A DNA stretch of 64,000 bases from positions 14,045-78,044 of IMG/VR virus record IMGVR_UViG_3300006153_000012. One strand, 5' to 3'. The notes beneath the pieces are model-generated. The model was not told the origin of the DNA, did not search any database, and saw nothing but the letters and a program-made list of their open reading frames with translations. The position numbers and the translations under genes are program-made. Shown one piece after another: positions 1,971 through 51,092 of the stretch (the stretch's first letter is position 1; each line of letters starts with the position of its first letter). Origin of the DNA: a virus (lineage: Duplodnaviria > Caudoviricetes).

Positions 1971-2216
1971 TTATTTTACAAAATTATTTTTCAGTATGCA
2001 TTGGCCTCCCGAAAAACTAACTTCGTCCCATCCCGCTTGTTCGGCTTTATCTTTAAACCATTCTTGCACTTTTTGTGTTACTTTTTGCATGTCTTCTTCG
2101 TCATTATGTTCCTGATTGTAAATTCCTAATACTTTCTTGCTGCCCACAATGATATTAGGGTCATTTTTGGATCTGTCATCTGGATCAGGAAAAACATATT
2201 TTCTTGGCATTTTCAT
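1971..2216 (-). CDS. Hypothetical protein (AT-rich insert after TMP)
   Basis: 81 aa ORF with AAAGGGG RBS; hairpin AAGGACAGC/GCTGTCCTT at about 1906-1932 follows it. Confidence 0.55.
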   Translation of the reverse strand: MKMPRKYVFPDPDDRSKNDPNIIVGSKKVLGIYNQEHNDEEDMQKVTQKVQEWFKDKAEQAGWDEVSFSGGQCILKNNFVK

Positions 2217-2334
2217 ATATCCCCTTTCTATTTTTCCATTATTATATTTTGTAAATAGAAAAATTTTAACAGTAATTGATAAATTTTAGCAATAATGATT
2301 CGTCCACACCCATGTTTCAGGGTGTGGGATGTCC

Positions 2335-4713
2335 TTAATATTTTTTCATTTCCTGTAAAATCCTGTTATGTGCACGCATGCTTACTATATCCGAGAAATC
2401 TTCTGGGTTCTGTACGCCATGTACATGGATTCCGCCGACATCGACATTCATGTTTCGGTTCATGGTGCTGTTATTGTTGATTACCTCGACAGCCTTCTCC
2501 ATGGCTTCTGCCGCATTATTCATGGCATATGCTGGCCTCATAAATGCGTCCCTGTTCGCACTGAAATATTCCTCGAATTTCTTTATCATTTGATATTCCC
2601 TGTCATCTGGTGTGAGTGGGTACAACGTTCTTCCATCCTTAGTGATGATGGTTCCATCCACCAGTTTGACATTTCCATTCTCATAAGTCTTGAGCACTTC
2701 ACCCTTATTTTCCATGATCTGTTCGGTCTGCTCTTCATTGAAAATAACGGTGCCTTTTGGAAGATCCCCCATGGTTGGCTCAGTGGTAAGTTCCGCCCTG
2801 CCGTCAGGGTACACGGTAAGTTCCGGCTGCCCGTACTCAGAACGCAGGGCATTCCTCTCGTCATTTGGAAGTCCTTTATACCCTCCCGTCCCTCTTGCGA
2901 ACGCCTTTCCGACCGTGCCATCTGCATGCGCCGGGACTGTGCTGCCGGACACGGCGACACTGACGGACGGCATCCCGGATGACTCCAGCGTCTCTGAGAG
3001 GGCACGCAGGGAGTTTGCCGCGGCCGCACACTGATCCTGTATGGAGTCCGCCATCTTCCTGACCATCTCGACAATCTTCTCACATATGGACTGGATGGAT
3101 CTGTCGCCGTCAGTCGCGAAGTCACTGAAGGCTTTCAGCCACGGGTCTTCCAGCTTGGATGCCACCTCATCCCCGCCTGTCTGCATGATGTCTATGATGC
3201 TCCCGCCGTTGCCGCCCGGCTCGGAGCCGCCGCTGTTCCTGATGGGCTTGCTGCTCCCGGCTTTCTTCCCGGGGTCACTGCCGTCACCGCCGCCCACACC
3301 GATGATCTCCGCAATGCGCGCCTGCATTTCCTCCCATGCGGGAAGGTACTCCTCCGTTATCTTCCTGATCTGGTCATCGAAGGACGTGTTGCCGATGTCC
3401 AGTGCCTGGCTCAGGCTGTCCATCTGCCCCTGTATCGTTGTGACCGCATCGGATATGGCTGACGCAAGGCCAATGAACCCTGTCCCTGCCGGTGCCGCGT
3501 CACCATCTGTCATGGCGTTCCCATCCCCCATGGACGCGGCAGTGCCTATGACGGCGGAGAAGTCTATCTGTCTGAATTCAGCACATTTCAGCGCAATGTC
3601 GCCGAAGGCGGATGCAGTGTCCCTCAGCTTCTGCACATACCCCTCATCCCCGATTTCCGGGAACTTTATGCTGCCAAGCTGGGTGACAACCTCATCAACC
3701 AGCTTCTTCAGCTTCTCCAGTTCCGTGCCCAGCGGCGCGATGCTCTCGGACATGCCAGACACGCCCTCCTGTATACCGCCCACTGCGGCGGATGCCTCCC
3801 CTGCGCTTGTGGCAAGTCCTGCCGCAGAGTCCTTCACGTCACTGACGCTGTTGCTAAGACCGTCCAGTGTGACTGCCCCAAGGTTCTCAAACGCACCCTT
3901 GGTTGACTCAAGGTAGCTGATGGAGTCCGCGCTGACCCCGGAAAGCCTTGACAGCTGCTCCAGGATGCCGTCATTGCCACGGCTCATGTCCGCAAGGATG
4001 CCCACATAGGCGGCCTTCAGCTTCTCAAATTCCTCCTGTGAGCCGCTTAAAAGCGCGTCCATGTTGATGCCGAGTTCAGAAAGTGCCGCTTCCATCTGTG
4101 CATTCTCAAGCAGGTCTGTCAGTTCCTCGAACTGTGACTTGTAGTCCTCCATGCCCTTTATCATGGCATCGTAGCGTTGCTCCTCTTTGGCGATGATGTC
4201 GTCATAATGTTTATTGACTTTCTCGGCTTCCTTATCCAGTAAGTCAATTTTGTCCTGACGCAGTTCCTTCTCCAGTTCCAGATAGTCTATTTCCTTCTCA
4301 ATTTTGGAAATGTCAATTTCGAGTTTTATATCCTCCACTTCCTGCTTCGCGTCACGGATGCCTGACGTGTCAGCCTGGTATGACATCTGGCCGTCCTTGT
4401 AGACGAGATCCGTCCTCTGGTTCTGCATACGCTGCAGGTCGTATTCCGCTTTCTGCAGGTCAAGGGAACGTTTCCGTTCTTCGTTTGCGTCCTGCATCGC
4501 CTTGATCTCTTTTTCCTTGGCCTCTATCTGTTCCTCGATGCCCTCAATCTCGGTTTCATACTGCTCCTTCTTGGCTTCTATTTCCTCAAGCCTTGCGTCA
4601 CGTTCCGCTTCAATGGCAGATATCGCGGCATCCTTTTCATCATTGATTGCGTCTATGCGCTTGTCAATCTGCCTCGTGATGTAGCTGAAGGCGGACTCAT
4701 AGAGGGATTTCAT
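2335..4713 (-). CDS. Tail tape-measure protein, exon 3 (C-terminal, 792 aa)
   Basis: Coiled-coil Ala/Glu/Lys-rich ORF; begins ATGAAATCC directly after the predicted terminal G of the intron (4714); in frame with exon 2 (YLDG|MKSLYESAF). Confidence 0.85.
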   Translation of the reverse strand: MKSLYESAFSYITRQIDKRIDAINDEKDAAISAIEAERDARLEEIEAKKEQYETEIEGIEEQIEAKEKEIKAMQDANEERKRSLDLQKAEYDLQRMQNQRTDLVYKDGQMSYQADTSGIRDAKQEVEDIKLEIDISKIEKEIDYLELEKELRQDKIDLLDKEAEKVNKHYDDIIAKEEQRYDAMIKGMEDYKSQFEELTDLLENAQMEAALSELGINMDALLSGSQEEFEKLKAAYVGILADMSRGNDGILEQLSRLSGVSADSISYLESTKGAFENLGAVTLDGLSNSVSDVKDSAAGLATSAGEASAAVGGIQEGVSGMSESIAPLGTELEKLKKLVDEVVTQLGSIKFPEIGDEGYVQKLRDTASAFGDIALKCAEFRQIDFSAVIGTAASMGDGNAMTDGDAAPAGTGFIGLASAISDAVTTIQGQMDSLSQALDIGNTSFDDQIRKITEEYLPAWEEMQARIAEIIGVGGGDGSDPGKKAGSSKPIRNSGGSEPGGNGGSIIDIMQTGGDEVASKLEDPWLKAFSDFATDGDRSIQSICEKIVEMVRKMADSIQDQCAAAANSLRALSETLESSGMPSVSVAVSGSTVPAHADGTVGKAFARGTGGYKGLPNDERNALRSEYGQPELTVYPDGRAELTTEPTMGDLPKGTVIFNEEQTEQIMENKGEVLKTYENGNVKLVDGTIITKDGRTLYPLTPDDREYQMIKKFEEYFSANRDAFMRPAYAMNNAAEAMEKAVEVINNNSTMNRNMNVDVGGIHVHGVQNPEDFSDIVSMRAHNRILQEMKKY

Positions 4714-4954
4714 CAAATCTGTTACTTTCACCATGACTGGCTACTGACTATGTGCATACATAGCGGATAGTCATTTCTGGCTATCTTTCACATTTCATTT
4801 ATTTGGGATTATTGTGTGAGTTCGGACTGGATCTTCACCCTCCCTGATAGGGTAGGGGAGTAACGGAACCTTATATGCTTTGTATCACAATATAAGGTAT
4901 TACAGTCTCTACGGATTCTGGTTTTAGATAATACTAATTTAAAAATAAATATAC

Positions 4955-4987
4955 CCAAAAAACACCTACCGAAGTAGATGTTTTTGG
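4955..4987 (-). terminator. Intrinsic terminator inside intron loop L6
   Basis: AACATCTAC-TTCG-GTAGGTGTT followed by T-run on minus strand. Confidence 0.7.
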
Positions 4988-5088
4988 AACCATAACCTTG
5001 TTATGGTTTTCTACATTTGATTTGCCATTAATCTATGCCTCGCATAGACATGCTTTTGGTAAACTCTTTCGTTCACCTTAGTAATATT

Positions 5089-5117
5089 ATACTACTACAT
5101 CTCTGATAATATGTCAA
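5089..5117 (-). promoter_or_regulatory. Sigma-A type promoter inside intron L6
   Basis: TTGACA-17 nt-TAGTAT on minus strand, overlapping the stop of the PemK-like ORF. Confidence 0.55.
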
Positions 5118-5118
5118 T

Positions 5119-5895
5119 TCAAAATTTAAAACTCAGATTTTTATTTATAGCCTTTATTATGTTATCAAAACATTTATCAGTAGCAATGCCCAAACATTTG
5201 CTGTCGATTCGCTTCCTGTCTATCGCCCGTATATGCATTACATTTACGAATCCATATATCCCGTTGCTGTTTCCCTCTAACCTTAAAGGAATTTCATAAA
5301 AATCTAAATATTTATTCTTTATCGCGCCATCTTTTACTATCTCAATATAGTATTTTCGTTTTACATCATCCCATTTGACTTTTTTTTGGTGTGTTGTCAC
5401 TGGGGCAATAATTGTGATATTGCCTTTAATGTTCCCTGTATTGTTTTGTAATATGATTACTGGCCTACGTCCATTTTGCTCACTGCCAATATTGTCTCCT
5501 AAATGGGCATAAAAAATTTCTTTTTGAGCGACCGTATATTTTCTTGTGCTTAAGTTTATATTTCTTGTTCTATTTACCCAAGCCAAATAATCTATATTCT
5601 TCTGCATTTTTTCTAAATAGATTGCCTTATTAGTTGTTTTTACAAACATTTCTCTTGATAATTTTCTGAATTCCTTTATTAATCTATTCTCAAGATTTTT
5701 ACACTCCCGGTCATCTTTCATAATAAAAAGAATTCTATTTATTATGTCTGATAATGTTGACTCGACCATTTCCTTTTCAGCAGAATTGTTCCTGTCAATA
5801 GAATTTGTAAATTTACGTAATATGCGGATTAAATCATCATATAATTTTTCAATATCCATTAGTATTCCCCAATCATCAGCATTATAATATCCCAT
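5119..5895 (-). CDS. PemK/MazF-family endoribonuclease with N-terminal extension, intron-encoded
   Basis: IFYAHLGDNIGSEQNGRRPVIILQNN..IIAPVT matches the MazF/EndoA GSEQxGxRP motif; located between the two strands of P6. Confidence 0.8.
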   Translation of the reverse strand: MGYYNADDWGILMDIEKLYDDLIRILRKFTNSIDRNNSAEKEMVESTLSDIINRILFIMKDDRECKNLENRLIKEFRKLSREMFVKTTNKAIYLEKMQKNIDYLAWVNRTRNINLSTRKYTVAQKEIFYAHLGDNIGSEQNGRRPVIILQNNTGNIKGNITIIAPVTTHQKKVKWDDVKRKYYIEIVKDGAIKNKYLDFYEIPLRLEGNSNGIYGFVNVMHIRAIDRKRIDSKCLGIATDKCFDNIIKAINKNLSFKF

Positions 5896-6064
5896 TATAT
5901 ACCAATAATTGACATAATACTACAAGAACATACATTCTAAAACCTTTATTATTATTATTATATCTAAAACCAGTCTTTCCTCGGTCTTAACGTTCCCATA
6001 CGCCTTTAACCGATATAGTTACTTTTCATTATGCTGCATTACTGCAGCAGATGGCATGTAATCC

Positions 6065-9040
6065 ACCATCAAGGTACTGATGCTCATACTTCTCATATTC
6101 CTTCAGGTATTTCTCTTTGTCGCGGAAATACTTGAGATAGAGCCTGCGGAGTGCATCCAGATATTGTTTTTCCGTGATTTTCCCACGGTCTTTCAGATCA
6201 TCAAGGTCTTTTAGTTCCTTCTCGAATGACTCTAAATATGCATCTGCTGCTTCCTTGCCGGCTTTCCCTGCTGACTTTTTACCACCTCCGGCATTGGAGA
6301 AATCAACTTTAGGCTCATAATTGATCTTGCCTGCTGATTCTTTGATAAGCGCCTGTAACATTGCCGCCCGTGCAATCTTGAATCCTATGTCCAAAGGATC
6401 AATTGTGCCGCTTGCGACCTCCTGATAAATCTGCTCCAATTCAGTCAGATATTTAATCACTTCACCCGTATAACCTGCATTCTCCGCAAGGGTTCTCAGG
6501 TTCGCAACCTCGCCATCTGTGTTCATAATCTGCATGTTGTACAGTTCCTTCTGGAACGTGAGCATCGCAATCGCCTGTGACGCATTTTCAGTAGACACCA
6601 TCTCATTTGCAAATGCGGCAATCTGTTCTTCTGTGGCTCTTGCAAGGTCAATCCCGGCTTCCTTCAATGCTTCCTTCAATGCCTCCGTGTTGCTTATCAA
6701 GGCTTCAAACGCCACCAATTCCTCATTGACAACACCCAAGTCTTCCAGTGCGGCTTTCAGTGTTTCAAAGTCCTCCGCGCCTGATAACGCCGCCTGTGTG
6801 ATGGAAGCAGCAAGGGAGTCAAATGCAGTCTCTACATCCTGCTCCGTTGACTCAGAATTGCGCAATACCCTGACAAAATCCTCATAGGAAGAGTAGTCTA
6901 CATCAAGATTTAATCCTTCTGGGTCAGACATCTCGTCTAGTTTAGACTTAATTGCGTCACATGTTGATAGGATGTCTATGCTGTTTAGTGCGAACTCATC
7001 ATCCGTGAAGATGGACTGGTATGCGGATTTCAGGGAATCGAATGCGGGTTTCAGCTGGGTGTTTAGCTGATCGATGGTGGAAGAGATGGATGAAATGGGG
7101 TTTTCAATGTTCGATGTTGAATCTTGAACTTCTTTAATCTTAGCAACAAGTTCATCCCAAGATAGAAGAGTACCCTCTGGAACTTCTACCTGTTCTGCCG
7201 CAATGTGCAGTTCTTCAAGTGTTAATTCTCCAACTTTGTCATCAAAATCATCTTGGAGTTTTTCTTTTACGTTGTTGATTAGTGGTTGGGTATCGTCTAC
7301 TTTTGCTTGTAAATTAACAGAAATTGGGTGTTCTGAACCAAAATACTCTTGAACTTTAGCAATAGCTTCTAATAATTCACCAGAATTTAAACTCCCAGAA
7401 TATATATTAGCTAAAGCTTCTGATACTTCTGAATCATTAATATTATTGATTGAGAATAAGATATTACGTCTTAAATATTCACTAACAGCTTCCCAATCAT
7501 TTTTATCAATGCCTTCTGGTAAACTTGACCAATCAAAATTGAAAAGTGTGTCTTGTATTGCTTTTTGTAATCCACTATCTTCAATCTGATTGTAAGTAAA
7601 CTCAGTCTGTAACCATGTATTTAAATATTGATTAATAGACGATGTTTCAGCTTCAAACTGTTGCTCTGCATATTTTACATCGTCAGATGCCTTGTTAAAT
7701 GCAGATACATAAGCATCTTTTATACCAGAAAGATTTGGTATATCACCACCATCTTCTAATTCCAGTTTATAACCAATGATTTGACCCATGCCATCTTTTA
7801 AATTTACTTGTTTTGCTGTTATACCTAATTTTTCAAGTAACTCTATATATTGACCAAGTTTTAATGCAACTGGATCTCCATTTGCATCTTTAGCATTTCC
7901 ATTAATATCAAAAGCAGTATAAATCCCATATTTATTTATTTCTTCATATGCTCTTTGGATTTCATCTCTTGTCTTTTTAGCATCTTCTTTTTGTTTCTCT
8001 AAATCAGAAACATTATTAGAATAACCAGCAAATAAGTCTGGCATCTGTTTCATGATTTCTTGATTTGCCAATACACGTTGTCTTTCAATTAAATCATCTA
8101 ATGAACCAACGATAGTATCTACATCACCAGATAGATCAAGTATAGCAACACCATTTTCATCAAAATTCTTTGTTAATGAAGGATAAAGTGTTGATAACTG
8201 ATTGCTTAACTCTAAAAATCTCTCATATTTTTCAGTAGAAAGATTTTTATTTTCATTAGTTAGTAAATTAACTCCTTGGGCAAGTTCAGCATATTCTTTG
8301 GCAATTTCTTTAGTTTTTGATGAATTTTCACTAAATGTATAGTTTATTTCATCAATTGCATTTTTGGCTTCTTCATAAGCTTCTTTTATTGCCTTAGCCG
8401 CTTTTTCTTGTTTAACCTTGTTTACTAACGCCGCACCACCACATAATGTTAATGCTGCTGTAATACTAGCAATAACAGGATGAGCCTGTGCAATAGTTAA
8501 AATACCAGTACCCAGTCCTTTTAGTGCAGTACCAGCACCTTTAATTTTAGCACCTATACCTGCAAGTAAAGAAGCAGACTCTTTTTGGTTTGCTAGAGTA
8601 ACACCAGCTTTTGCAGCAATTAAATTAGCTTCTGCCTGTGTTAATTTACCAGTAGCAACAAGTTCCTTTAATTTTGCGGCTGTCACAACATTGGTAGCCG
8701 TAGCCTCTGCCGTTTCAGAAGTGATAAGTCCAGTATTAATCAACAACGCTTCTGATTGATCTTTATTTCTCTTTTTTGTTACGAGTATAGCATTAAGTTC
8801 AGCAGTAGTTAATTTGCCAGTAGAACCTAATAATTCTGCCTGTGATAAAATTGCCTGTTTCTGTGCAAGATTAAGTCCTTGTGTTGATAATACCAATTCT
8901 GCTTGCTTTGCGTTTAATCCTTTTAAAGCTGTTGCATATGCAGTTATATTTGTAGCATTTAATTTCAAATTGCTGAGTTCGTTTATTTTTCTTCCAGCAA
9001 TATAAACATCTTCCAAACTTTGTCTAATTGTTTTGAATAT
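6065..9040 (-). CDS. Tail tape-measure protein, exon 2 (992 aa)
   Basis: Ala-rich helical TMP-like ORF; starts ATATTC after AGTATG; ends GATGGT at the P1 U.G. Confidence 0.85.
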
Positions 9041-9121
9041 CATACTAATATATGTTATACTTGTGGAGAGTATAACGTCCTCTTGTGGAGAGAGGATATT
9101 GATTCCCTTGTGGAGAGGGAA
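9028..9121 (-). repeat. 3'-splice-site module copy 1 (functional): three CUCCACA-loop hairpins + AGTATG|ATATTCAAAACAA
   Basis: Plus-strand stems GTTATACT/AGTATAAC, TCCTCT/AGAGGA, TTCCCT/AGGGAA each enclose TGTGGAG; 19-mer TTGTTTTGAATATCATACT at 9028-9046. Confidence 0.9.
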
Positions 9122-9145
9122 ATTTATAATAGGAGATGTTTATTT

Positions 9146-9817
9146 ATGAAAAGAAAAATAATAAAAGTAACAATTTTGATTTTAATGTCTATTTCTATAA
9201 CTGGATGCTCCAAGGCTAATTATCAAAAGGATGAATCATATGAAACAGATATTATTGGAACATATGAAATAAATGCCGAAGCTGATTCTGATAATAAAAC
9301 TACTTATTACAAACAATATGTGTTAAATGACGATAATACATATAATTATGAAAGCAATGTATTTGGCACAGATTCAAAGTCAAGCGGTAATTACACTATA
9401 AATAATGAAACAGAAAATATTCTCATAATTGATTTTGATATTATAAATAGTACATCTACCGATGAAGAATCAGTAAATATTAATTCTGCTAAACAATACA
9501 AAAAGGTTTATAAATATAAAAATATGCTTGGTGATATAATAGAAACGAAAGAGTTGCCAACATCCGAAATGTTTAATTACATAATACCGAATAAAACAGG
9601 AGGTGGCATGATATTTACTAAGGATGGTTATTATCATGCGTGTATTGATATTGATAATTGCCAATGTGACTATGCAAAGGACACAAAATATATAAGAAAA
9701 GATAATATTATATATTTCAATATTAAAGGTTCTGGTACTGATAACTATTGGCAAATTGCAGATTATGTAATCGATGATTATTTATTTACTCCAGAACTAT
9801 ATAAAGTGGAAGAGTAG
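9146..9817 (+). CDS. Lipoprotein (cargo)
   Basis: MKRKIIKVTILILMSISITG-C lipobox; AGGAG RBS; start revised from ORF track 9020. Confidence 0.8.
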   Translation: MKRKIIKVTILILMSISITGCSKANYQKDESYETDIIGTYEINAEADSDNKTTYYKQYVLNDDNTYNYESNVFGTDSKSSGNYTINNETENILIIDFDIINSTSTDEESVNINSAKQYKKVYKYKNMLGDIIETKELPTSEMFNYIIPNKTGGGMIFTKDGYYHACIDIDNCQCDYAKDTKYIRKDNIIYFNIKGSGTDNYWQIADYVIDDYLFTPELYKVEE

Positions 9818-10013
9818 TAGTATCATTTCATTCAATCATATAAATCACGTCCTTTCTAAATATTTTTATGAGTAAGATTACTCAATAGATATCACAATAT
9901 CAATTATAATATCTATTCAATGATCTTGGCTTTGATGAAAATATGTTCTGGGTATCAAAAATATATAACTAATGATACAATAAATGTATCAATGTTTAGG
10001 AGGATATCATGCT

Positions 10014-43114: not shown

Positions 43115-43201
43115 TGGGAAGAGTAGGATTTGAACCTACGGTACATTTCTGCACATCTGTCTTCAGAACAGACACAATAAACCAGACTCTGACATCTTCC
43201 C
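43115..43201 (-). tRNA. tRNA-Ser(UGA), class II
   Basis: GGGAAGA/TCTTCCC acceptor, TCTGT-TCTGAAG-ACAGA anticodon arm, long variable arm, GGTTCAAATCC. Confidence 0.75.
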
Positions 43202-44345: not shown

Positions 44346-44428
44346 GAGGCAGGAGAGGACTCGAACCTCTGATGTTTCTAATGTGTCTGATTTGCAGTCA
44401 GGTGCAGTCGCCTCTGTGCCACCAGTAT
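44346..44428 (-). tRNA. tRNA-Cys(GCA)-like with long variable arm and poorly paired acceptor (likely pseudo)
   Basis: CTGA-CTGCAAA-TCAG anticodon arm, AGAGG-TTCGAGT-CCTCT T-arm; acceptor pairs only 4/7. Confidence 0.5.
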
Positions 44429-51019: not shown

Positions 51020-51092
51020 TAGCAGATACGGGATTTGAACCCGTGTACAACGGTTATGAGCCGTTCGTGGAACCACTCCATCTTAATCTGCG
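51020..51092 (-). tRNA. tRNA with CAU anticodon (Met or Ile2)
   Basis: AACGG-CTCATAA-CCGTT anticodon arm; CGGG-TTCAAAT-CCCG T-arm; GCAGAT/ATCTGC acceptor. Confidence 0.75.

Follow-up and report, generated by a model that had tools for sequence, protein, structure and literature searches.

Bacterial and phage group I introns are usually viewed as pairs of a selfish ribozyme and a homing endonuclease. In the phage introns of subgroup IA, such as that in the td gene of T4, the open reading frame (ORF) is looped out of P6a in structures of the Michel & Westhof type. Among toxins, the fused toxin-antitoxin proteins CapRel and EzeT have an extra domain attached to the toxin domain. Structural genes of phages are already known to harbor group I introns, and introns with a non-homing cargo have been described as well, namely the IStrons, which are transposon-encoded group I introns (PMC10690162). 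The locus described here is an IA-like group I intron of 1351 nt in the gene for the tail tape-measure protein (TMP) of a virus. In the loop of P6a it carries a gene for a MazF/PemK-type endoribonuclease (RNase), followed by a gene for a structured small RNA (sRNA). The intron occupies positions 4714-6064 of a 64,000-nucleotide stretch of DNA (the window), which is part of a 78-kb IMG/VR virus record (IMGVR_UViG_3300006153_000012). The TMP gene, the intron and the intron's contents are all on the minus strand. On balance, the locus is best read as an IA-type intron that docks an autonomous module of toxin and sRNA in the TMP gene, an interpretation that the evidence favors by a modest degree.

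The intron and its host gene

Three large ORFs of the window (18958-20970, 6029-9043 and 2335-4734) are pieces of one TMP, and their close homologs, for example in Kineothrix sp., are annotated as phage tape measure proteins. Related sequence occurs in mouse-gut sequencing runs. The source is an uncultured mouse-gut phage or prophage, and the phage hosts are probably Lachnospiraceae. An AT-rich segment of 1.35 kb separates the second piece of the TMP from the third.

The ends of this segment can be placed to the nucleotide. The upstream exon, which is the middle segment of the TMP (6065-9043), ends in ..CAG UAC CUU GAU GGU (..Q Y L D G) at 6065, and the downstream exon (2335-4713) starts with AUG AAA UCC at 4713 and begins M K S L Y E S A F. 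Joining 6065 to 4713 creates the in-frame sequence ..EHQYLDG|MKSLYESAF.. The tail of exon 1 and the head of exon 2 are contiguous, with zero gap, in more than 40 uninterrupted TMP homologs, including P0101 (93% identity), so that the ends 6064 and 4714, proposed in an initial annotation made from the letters of the DNA, are exact. Many other TMP homologs terminate with the same read-through tail that the intron encodes, GLHAICCSNAA, and the interrupted allele is therefore common.

The sequences around the two junctions have the geometry of group I splice sites. The exon end GAUGGU (6065-6070) pairs with GCCAUC of the internal guide sequence (IGS, 6050-6055) to form P1, in which U6065, the last base of the exon, makes a U.G pair at the 5' splice site. 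Nucleotides 6056-6064 pair at 8 of 9 positions with the first 9 nt of exon 2 (P10), and the final base of the intron is a G (4714). The 5' core (5978-6055) begins with the IGS strand of P1 and continues with P2 (6032-6049), the 5' strand of P3 (6018-6022), P4 (6008-6013/5981-5986), P5 (5989-6004) and the 5' strand of P6 (5978-5980). The 3' core (4714-4930) comprises the 3' strands of P6a (4918-4930) and P6 (4913-4915), the 5' strand of P7 (4903-4909), P7.1 (4869-4897), the 3' strand of P3 (4860-4864), P8 (4838-4857), the joining segment J8/7 (4830-4837), the 3' strand of P7 (4824-4829), P9 (4788-4819) and the terminal G. P7 has the form G(A)GACUG/CAGUCC with a bulged A, its CAGUCC strand being preceded by UGAAGAUC in J8/7. 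The cargo is enclosed by a 13-bp stem (5961-5973/4918-4930), which shows compensatory changes in L002, L011 and L215. The initial annotation was right that the ORF lies between the strands of this stem, which it called P6; because a 3-bp P6 (GGA/UCC) sits beneath the stem, the stem is named P6a here.

Homologous introns were collected with the conserved core motif, which gave 22 viral loci, with toxin homologs, which gave more, and by iterated nhmmer searches, which recovered both halves in 23 introns. Among these 23, the bases GACUG/CAGUC of P7 are invariant. In helices P2, P3, P4, P5, P6, P7, P7.1 and P8, 91.5% of the cells are paired, compared to 35-38% when the 3' partners are slid, and 31 of the 44 pairs of P2-P8 show compensatory changes. 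Visual comparison of the window with L215 reveals a compensatory change in P9. The P7.1 hairpin, the only extra helix found between the 5' strand of P7 and the 3' strand of P3, is 94% paired, with compensatory changes in 7 of its 8 pairs. Subgroup IA is defined by an extra pairing (P7.1/P7.2) between P7 and P3', and the intron has such a pairing. The IGS covaries with the exon in L002, L011, L197 and L215, across three different TMP sites. ORF-less copies make up six of the 23 introns, their 5' and 3' halves being only 7-48 nt apart, and two that were read completely are about 270 and 370 nt long. The group I intron that the initial annotation had recognized at 4714-6064 is thus established by comparative structure, and its splicing is predicted.

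If the segment were instead an ordinary intergenic moron island and the TMP were made as separate polypeptides, gene callers would be right to annotate the TMP pieces as separate ORFs, and the lack of an intron call by Rfam would be expected. Such an arrangement is extremely improbable. The junction is in frame, nucleotide-exact and the same as in many uninterrupted homologs; the flanks form a covarying P1-P9 core that is common to ORF-less copies of only ~270-370 nt; the frame of exon 1 runs out in a junk tail encoded by the intron (GLHAICCSNAA); and exon 2 lacks its own ribosome-binding context. TMP genes of this type are now mis-annotated as two or three separate ORFs.

The toxin

The only sizeable ORF between the strands of the P6a stem is the toxin gene (5119-5859). 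Its longest frame (5119-5895) has 258 codons for amino acids, but the likely start, judged from the sequence, is the ATG at 5859, which is 6 nt after a Shine-Dalgarno (SD) sequence GGGGA (5866-5870) and at which most of the 243-244-aa homologs begin. The resulting 246-aa protein consists of an N-terminal four-helix domain (residues 1-105) and a MazF/PemK endoribonuclease domain (residues 106-246). The latter matches Pfam PemK_toxin (PF02452) with E=5.9e-16 and 59.1 bits against a cutoff of 23.1, and contains the motif GSEQNGRRP, an instance of the GSEQxGxRP pattern that had been noticed initially. The family profile matches B. subtilis EndoA/MazF in the PDB at 7e-26. In the AlphaFold2 model, the confidence measure pLDDT is 90 overall and exceeds 90 over residues 1-105; the fold gives Foldseek TM-scores of ~0.8 on the targets, and VIA gives Z 14.6 with an rmsd of 3.0 over 111 residues. 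The predicted fold is that of MazF. PemK_toxin is the only domain matched in Pfam, NCBIfam and PHROGs, and the protein matches no homing-endonuclease domain there (LAGLIDADG, GIY-YIG, HNH, His-Cys, PD-(D/E)xK/Vsr-like); in NCBIfam the matches are sub-threshold ones to MazF/ChpB.

Residues R132 and T155 align with Arg25 and Thr48 of B. subtilis MazF, mutation of which abolishes activity (PMC7354611). R132 is invariant and T155 is kept in at least 90% of 67 homologs, and the MazF domain is predicted to be catalytically intact. The claim that the intron carries a PemK/MazF-type RNase in place of a homing endonuclease is borne out by the family, the fold and the catalytic residues, and by sister introns that have Zn-finger/Vsr- or HNH-like ORFs in the same loop.

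The protein departs from an ordinary MazF in two respects. A family-specific β-hairpin of ~27 aa is inserted just after the catalytic Thr in the β3-β4 loop, which is described as an antitoxin-contact site in MazF (PMC7354611), suggesting an altered mode of inhibition. The MazF domain is preceded by ~105-110 residues, close to the ~110 estimated initially. The domain that they form has no informative match in the ESM Atlas (<=0.78) or in a wide structural search, which returned generic helical proteins with Z <=6. The 246-aa protein is now mis-annotated as a type II toxin.

About 100 homologs of the toxin, mostly 240-245 aa long, were found in gut metagenomes and in metagenome-assembled genomes (MAGs) of Lachnospiraceae or Eubacterium. 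BLAST searches of deposited phage genomes returned no match for the toxin protein, for the intron region or for an ORF-less relative of the intron. As had been stated initially, there is no MazE-like ORF in the intron, and none is consistently adjacent in ~20 homologous loci. A search for self-avoidance of a cleavage motif gave no significantly depleted 5-mer in 16 ORFs of the family (largest |z| 2.7 of 1024), and UACAU was not depleted.

Upstream of the toxin gene, a promoter/operator-like region (ATGTTCTnnTAG..TGTCRATTATTGGTATATAAT, 5894-5931) is conserved in intron-borne and in free-standing phage copies and is the putative promoter of the toxin. An imperfect AGAA..TTCT inverted repeat lies just before the ATGTTCTnnTAG ... 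TGTCRATTATTGGTATATAAT element, which may be an operator for autoregulation.

The structured RNA downstream of the toxin

The sRNA gene directly follows the toxin stop codon. It has a near-consensus promoter (5089-5117) with a -35 hexamer TTGACA (5112-5117), a 17-nt spacer and a -10 hexamer TAGTAT (5089-5094). The RNA of ~125 nt (4957-5082), delineated by covariation, a covariance model and minimum free energy (MFE), consists of the hairpins H1 (5058-5077), H2 (5031-5049) and H3 (4988-5008), with a conserved single strand (5011-5023) between the last two, and of an intrinsic terminator (4957-4985). The initial annotation, which noted no adjacent MazE-like ORF, was correct in that there is no such protein antitoxin, but it overlooked this conserved gene, which is the obvious candidate partner.

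The sRNA is found after every member of the toxin family examined, intron-borne or free-standing, down to a protein identity of ~41-47%. Across the loci, the -35 is TTGACA (TTGACG in two) and the -10 is TAnnAT, separated by a 17-nt spacer and often with an upstream TG; the hexamers are kept while the spacer sequence varies. About 110 transcribed nt then form the three hairpins, with conserved single strands between them, notably AAAUCAAAUGUAG, and are followed by the intrinsic terminator. RNAalifold recovers hairpins 2 and 3. When all three hairpins are specified, 94-96% of the cells are paired, compared to ~30% in slid controls, and 21-22 of the 24 pairs are compensatory. The alignment with 95.9% paired cells and 22 compensatory pairs is equaled by none of 500 shuffles. 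Because G.U pairs are frequent, the RNA can be assigned to the strand of the toxin gene. The copy in the window folds into the same structure at -41 kcal/mol (MFE z = -6.8).

A covariance model, R1, was built from 18 copies. It matches behind two family members outside its training set (L040 and L123), and it finds no sRNA behind ordinary MazF genes. In all four bacterial genomes considered, the sRNA is single-copy and adjoins the toxin gene. In the family of G001, the bacterial genome with L118, one of 151 genomes has it, namely the already known one. No orphan copies were found, but the module is rare. The sRNA matches no Rfam family and represents a new, well-defined RNA motif. There are no tandem repeats in its region except for a TTA run. 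A type I-like, antisense mode of action was considered and rejected, as the duplex energies of the sRNA with the toxin 5' untranslated region are no better than those of shuffles in 15 loci (z -1.9 to +1.7).

The linkage of the RNA to the toxin bears on a different possibility, namely that the toxin is self-contained, self-inhibition by the N-terminal domain having also been suggested initially. Its N-terminal four-helix domain would be an antitoxin or sensor in cis, keeping the MazF domain off until a trigger such as an infecting phage, and the sRNA would regulate expression or be an unrelated co-transcribed element. The N-terminal domain is indeed conserved in the family and confidently predicted, protein antitoxin genes are lacking next to the ~20 loci, and the family-specific β-hairpin occupies the loop that antitoxins contact. 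This arrangement is nevertheless unlikely. It leaves unexplained a structured RNA with its own promoter that is linked to the toxin at every locus. Moreover, family members of 197-201 aa (P0076-P0089, L039 and L209) have lost about half of the N-terminal domain and kept the sRNA, and the N-terminal fold itself lacks an informative match. That the N-terminal domain inhibits or senses in some way, instead of the sRNA or in addition to it, is a somewhat broader proposition, and it too is rather doubtful.

P6a as an exchangeable cargo slot

The content of P6a varies among the homologous introns, which hold endonuclease-like ORFs, a P63C-domain protein, the Rfam skipping-rope RNA, other ORFs or nothing in this loop. 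Most relatives of the intron are at a different TMP site, ..QDPxxVG|. The first TMP piece of the window is uninterrupted at this site (QDASQVGNAIRS), which confirms the QDPxxVG junction. The relatives at this site have in P6a a Zn-finger protein of ~307-321 aa with weak matches to Vsr and to the PHROG 'HNH endonuclease'.

Introns that carry the toxin are present at two TMP sites, that of the window and ..LV|Y(T/K)KDG (L002, L197 and L200). The latter site is uninterrupted in exon 2 of the window, and the guides at each site are altered to match. The intron has therefore moved together with its toxin cargo. Conversely, the TMP gene of L215 is interrupted by the same intron at the site used in the window, the aligned flanks having 82-88% column identity and the core helices being nearly identical, and the P6a of L215 contains an unrelated insert of ~430 nt (3340-3770). 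The cargo of P6a is exchanged, and the view of the intron as a cargo slot, which had been put forward initially, holds well. On its opposite strand, the insert of L215 encodes a hydrophobic peptide of 42 aa (3466-3594). It also has promoter-like boxes as well as a long-range stem, and looks like a type I toxin-antitoxin candidate.

Several other relatives illustrate the range of arrangements. In L200, an extra ORF of 150 aa lies between the 5' half of the intron and the toxin cassette (2451-2903), so that P6a is not limited to a single cargo gene. L216 (5670-7125) and L217 have an intron of the same family at a third TMP site, ..QYLDALR|, 27 codons upstream of the site used in the window, with a 297-aa P63C-domain protein (phrog_2384) as the cargo; ~25 truncated TMP homologs (P0114-P0143) end at this site. 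In L024, the skipping-rope RNA (7673-7754, 65.8 bits) lies in the P6a loop of a homologous TMP intron beside an ORF of 142 aa, a possible genomic context for this orphan RNA motif. The TMP gene of the viral locus L033 is interrupted by three consecutive group I introns (2075-3130), of which the outer two (~2075-2336 and 2858-3130) are ORF-less copies of the family of the toxin-bearing intron, and the middle one (2430-2754) is unrelated and recognized by Rfam (73.9 bits).

The toxin and the sRNA also exist together outside introns. Free-standing copies of the module lie beside an ISL3 element, between rplL and rpoB, and at other phage positions (moron or intergenic). The copy between rplL and rpoB, in a bacterial MAG (L207, 3001-3904), is situated in one of the most conserved gene neighborhoods. 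As the sRNA follows the toxin both inside and outside introns, the cargo is an autonomous module of the two.

The free-standing copies also bear on the possibility that the RNase serves the intron. It might process or stabilize the intron or the pre-mRNA in the manner of a maturase, or it might bias the competition between phages with and without the intron at the RNA level, replacing the DNA homing endonuclease. The position of its gene, where relatives encode endonucleases, and the presence of PemK-bearing introns with matching guides at two TMP sites would be in line with such a role. However, the same gene and sRNA are found in bacterial chromosomes and at intergenic phage sites, so that their function cannot depend on the intron, and the spliced mRNA is identical to the mRNA of an intron-less gene, leaving no obvious RNA target by which the two could be discriminated. 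A service to the intron is therefore highly improbable.

A possible mechanism

The observations can be combined into the following description. The intron would act as a neutral docking site in the TMP gene, splicing removing the P6a cargo from the TMP mRNA so that the essential gene survives the insertion. The docked module would consist of its own promoter region, the 246-aa RNase, a strong σA-type promoter that drives the sRNA, and a terminator. It would be a toxin-partner pair of the toxin-antitoxin or abortive-infection kind, in which the RNase is the effector and an abundant sRNA most likely neutralizes or regulates the RNase, through an action on the protein instead of antisense pairing. 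With its own promoters, the module would be expressed in the lysogen without depending on late transcription of the TMP gene. The part of this description in which the sRNA is an antitoxin that acts on the protein has not quite an even chance of being correct. The fuller proposal, that in gut phages a MazF-family RNase is restrained by a dedicated, non-repetitive sRNA of ~125 nt and that the P6a loop is its safe harbor and an exchangeable slot, is put forward tentatively, as a possibility that falls short of even.

Several observations weigh against this description. The sRNA is non-repetitive and lies downstream of the toxin, unlike the known type III antitoxins, and the N-terminal domain of the toxin could itself be the inhibitor. 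Upstream of its 3' core, the intron contains a canonical intrinsic terminator in the sense orientation, at which a fraction of the TMP transcripts should end prematurely. The Rfam model RF00028 (Intron_gpI) misses the intron: a scan of the whole window at the gathering threshold returned only three tRNAs, scans of 4400-6400 and 4690-4975 at E<=10 gave no Intron_gpI match, and the compact relative L025 likewise gave no RF00028 match. In RNA-library contigs of four runs compared with 3500-7500, there are no joints across the intron, but as these contigs derive from related strains and possibly in part from carried-over DNA, they neither show nor exclude splicing. Finally, no defence-system model of PADLOC matches.

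Some of these difficulties may be accounted for. The terminator is kept in all four intron-borne lineages, and therefore the phage either reads through it or tolerates a lower output of TMP. The former would call for read-through or antitermination, and the latter might be acceptable for a low-copy protein such as the TMP. The failure of RF00028 is probably a limit of the detector, the large insert in P6a and the IA-type extras defeating the model. In the ORF-less relative L026, the full length of the Intron_gpI model matches weakly, scoring 18.8 bits (E=0.024) where the gathering score is 50.

The lack of a PADLOC match would also suit an inert or decaying passenger that landed in the loop by chance, is unexpressed or inactive in the phage of the window, and persists because splicing hides the cassette; the loops of group I introns do tolerate large insertions. 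The state of the module makes this very unlikely. In intron-borne copies at two TMP sites, the ORF is intact and the catalytic residues, SD and promoters are kept at a protein identity of 77-86%, which implies purifying selection, and compensatory changes preserve the pairing of the sRNA. RNA-library contigs of three mouse-gut studies cover the toxin ORF. Contigs from two runs of one of these studies also cover the sRNA and the 3' half of the intron, and in a run of another mouse-gut study there is a separate short contig over the sRNA. The flanking TMP exons are nearly uncovered, except for short pieces of lower identity at ~7020-7500. This coverage is compatible with expression of the module, though not proof of it.

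Other features of the region

The first and second TMP pieces are separated by an insert of ~10 kb (9044-18957) with mostly plus-strand cargo. It encodes a GmrSD_N/Mrr_N protein (9984-11462), two lipoprotein-like ORFs, and large AT-rich ORFs on the minus strand (12709-15789 and 16767-17810). The initial annotation had taken this insert as another case of an intron used as a cargo slot in the same gene. The TMP regions that flank it are indeed contiguous in one homologous protein, P0173, but the insert is not flanked by an intron of the toxin-bearing family: an nhmmer search of positions 1-22000 of the window with both intron halves matched a single copy, that at 4714-6064. The three tRNA genes of the window are on the minus strand at 43115-43201, 44352-44423 and 51021-51091 (Rfam tRNA, 44, 30.7 and 38.4 bits).

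Comparison with known systems

In its architecture, the intron resembles the IA introns of the T4 td type. Both have the U.G pair in P1, P10 and a terminal G, a P3-P8 core with a bulged A in P7 and a J8/7 of the AAGAU type, P7.1 between P7 and P3', and a short P6 followed by P6a, the loop of which holds an ORF with its own expression signals; both interrupt a phage gene. The intron described here differs in that its ORF encodes a MazF RNase and not a homing endonuclease, that its host gene is the tail tape-measure gene, that its loop contains an additional RNA gene with a promoter and a terminator, and that it is missed by RF00028. The IStrons are similar in that they are group I introns with a non-homing cargo, the insertion of which is concealed from the host gene by splicing. 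However, their cargo is a mobilizing transposase or TnpB with a guide RNA, whereas the toxin and sRNA have no evident role in mobility. An intron family that swaps endonucleases for a toxin module or for other genes suggests that introns are insertion-tolerant cargo sites in essential genes. By way of P6a, phages may accommodate accessory or defence genes at no cost in intergenic space.

The toxin has the family, fold, GSEQxGxRP loop and catalytic Arg and Thr of the type II systems MazEF and PemIK, for instance B. subtilis EndoA/MazF (PDB 4MDX). In contrast to these systems, it has no MazE or PemI gene, has a helical N-terminal extension of ~105 aa and a 27-aa β-hairpin in the β3-β4 loop, and is followed by a dedicated sRNA. 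Like CapRel and EzeT, it combines an extra domain and a toxin domain in one polypeptide without a separate protein antitoxin, but no homology to these proteins was found, the toxin described here has an sRNA partner, and its inhibition in cis is only a candidate.

Full-text searches yielded no report of a group I intron that contains a MazF/PemK toxin or a toxin-antitoxin module, and none of an RNA partner for a MazF toxin; the combination of MazF with a structured sRNA is possibly a new toxin-antitoxin architecture. A parallel to this combination is provided by the type III systems (ToxIN, CptIN and AbiQ), which are associated with phages and defence and in which the gene that accompanies an endoribonuclease also specifies a non-coding RNA and not a protein antitoxin. 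The structural likeness of the toxin to the type III toxins is distant (Z 7.8 for CptN, 5.6 for AbiQ and 5.3 for ToxN), and the toxin is a true Pfam MazF member and not of the ToxN/AbiQ type. In the known type III systems, the antitoxin RNA consists of tandem repeats and precedes the toxin gene, with a terminator between the two. The sRNA described here is a single, non-repetitive RNA of three hairpins, encoded downstream of the toxin under a near-consensus promoter of its own. The MazF subfamily and its strictly linked sRNA thus offer a testable candidate for an RNA-protein toxin-antitoxin pairing in the best-studied toxin family, and a MazF restrained by RNA, if this proves true, would add a new architecture to the type II and type III systems.

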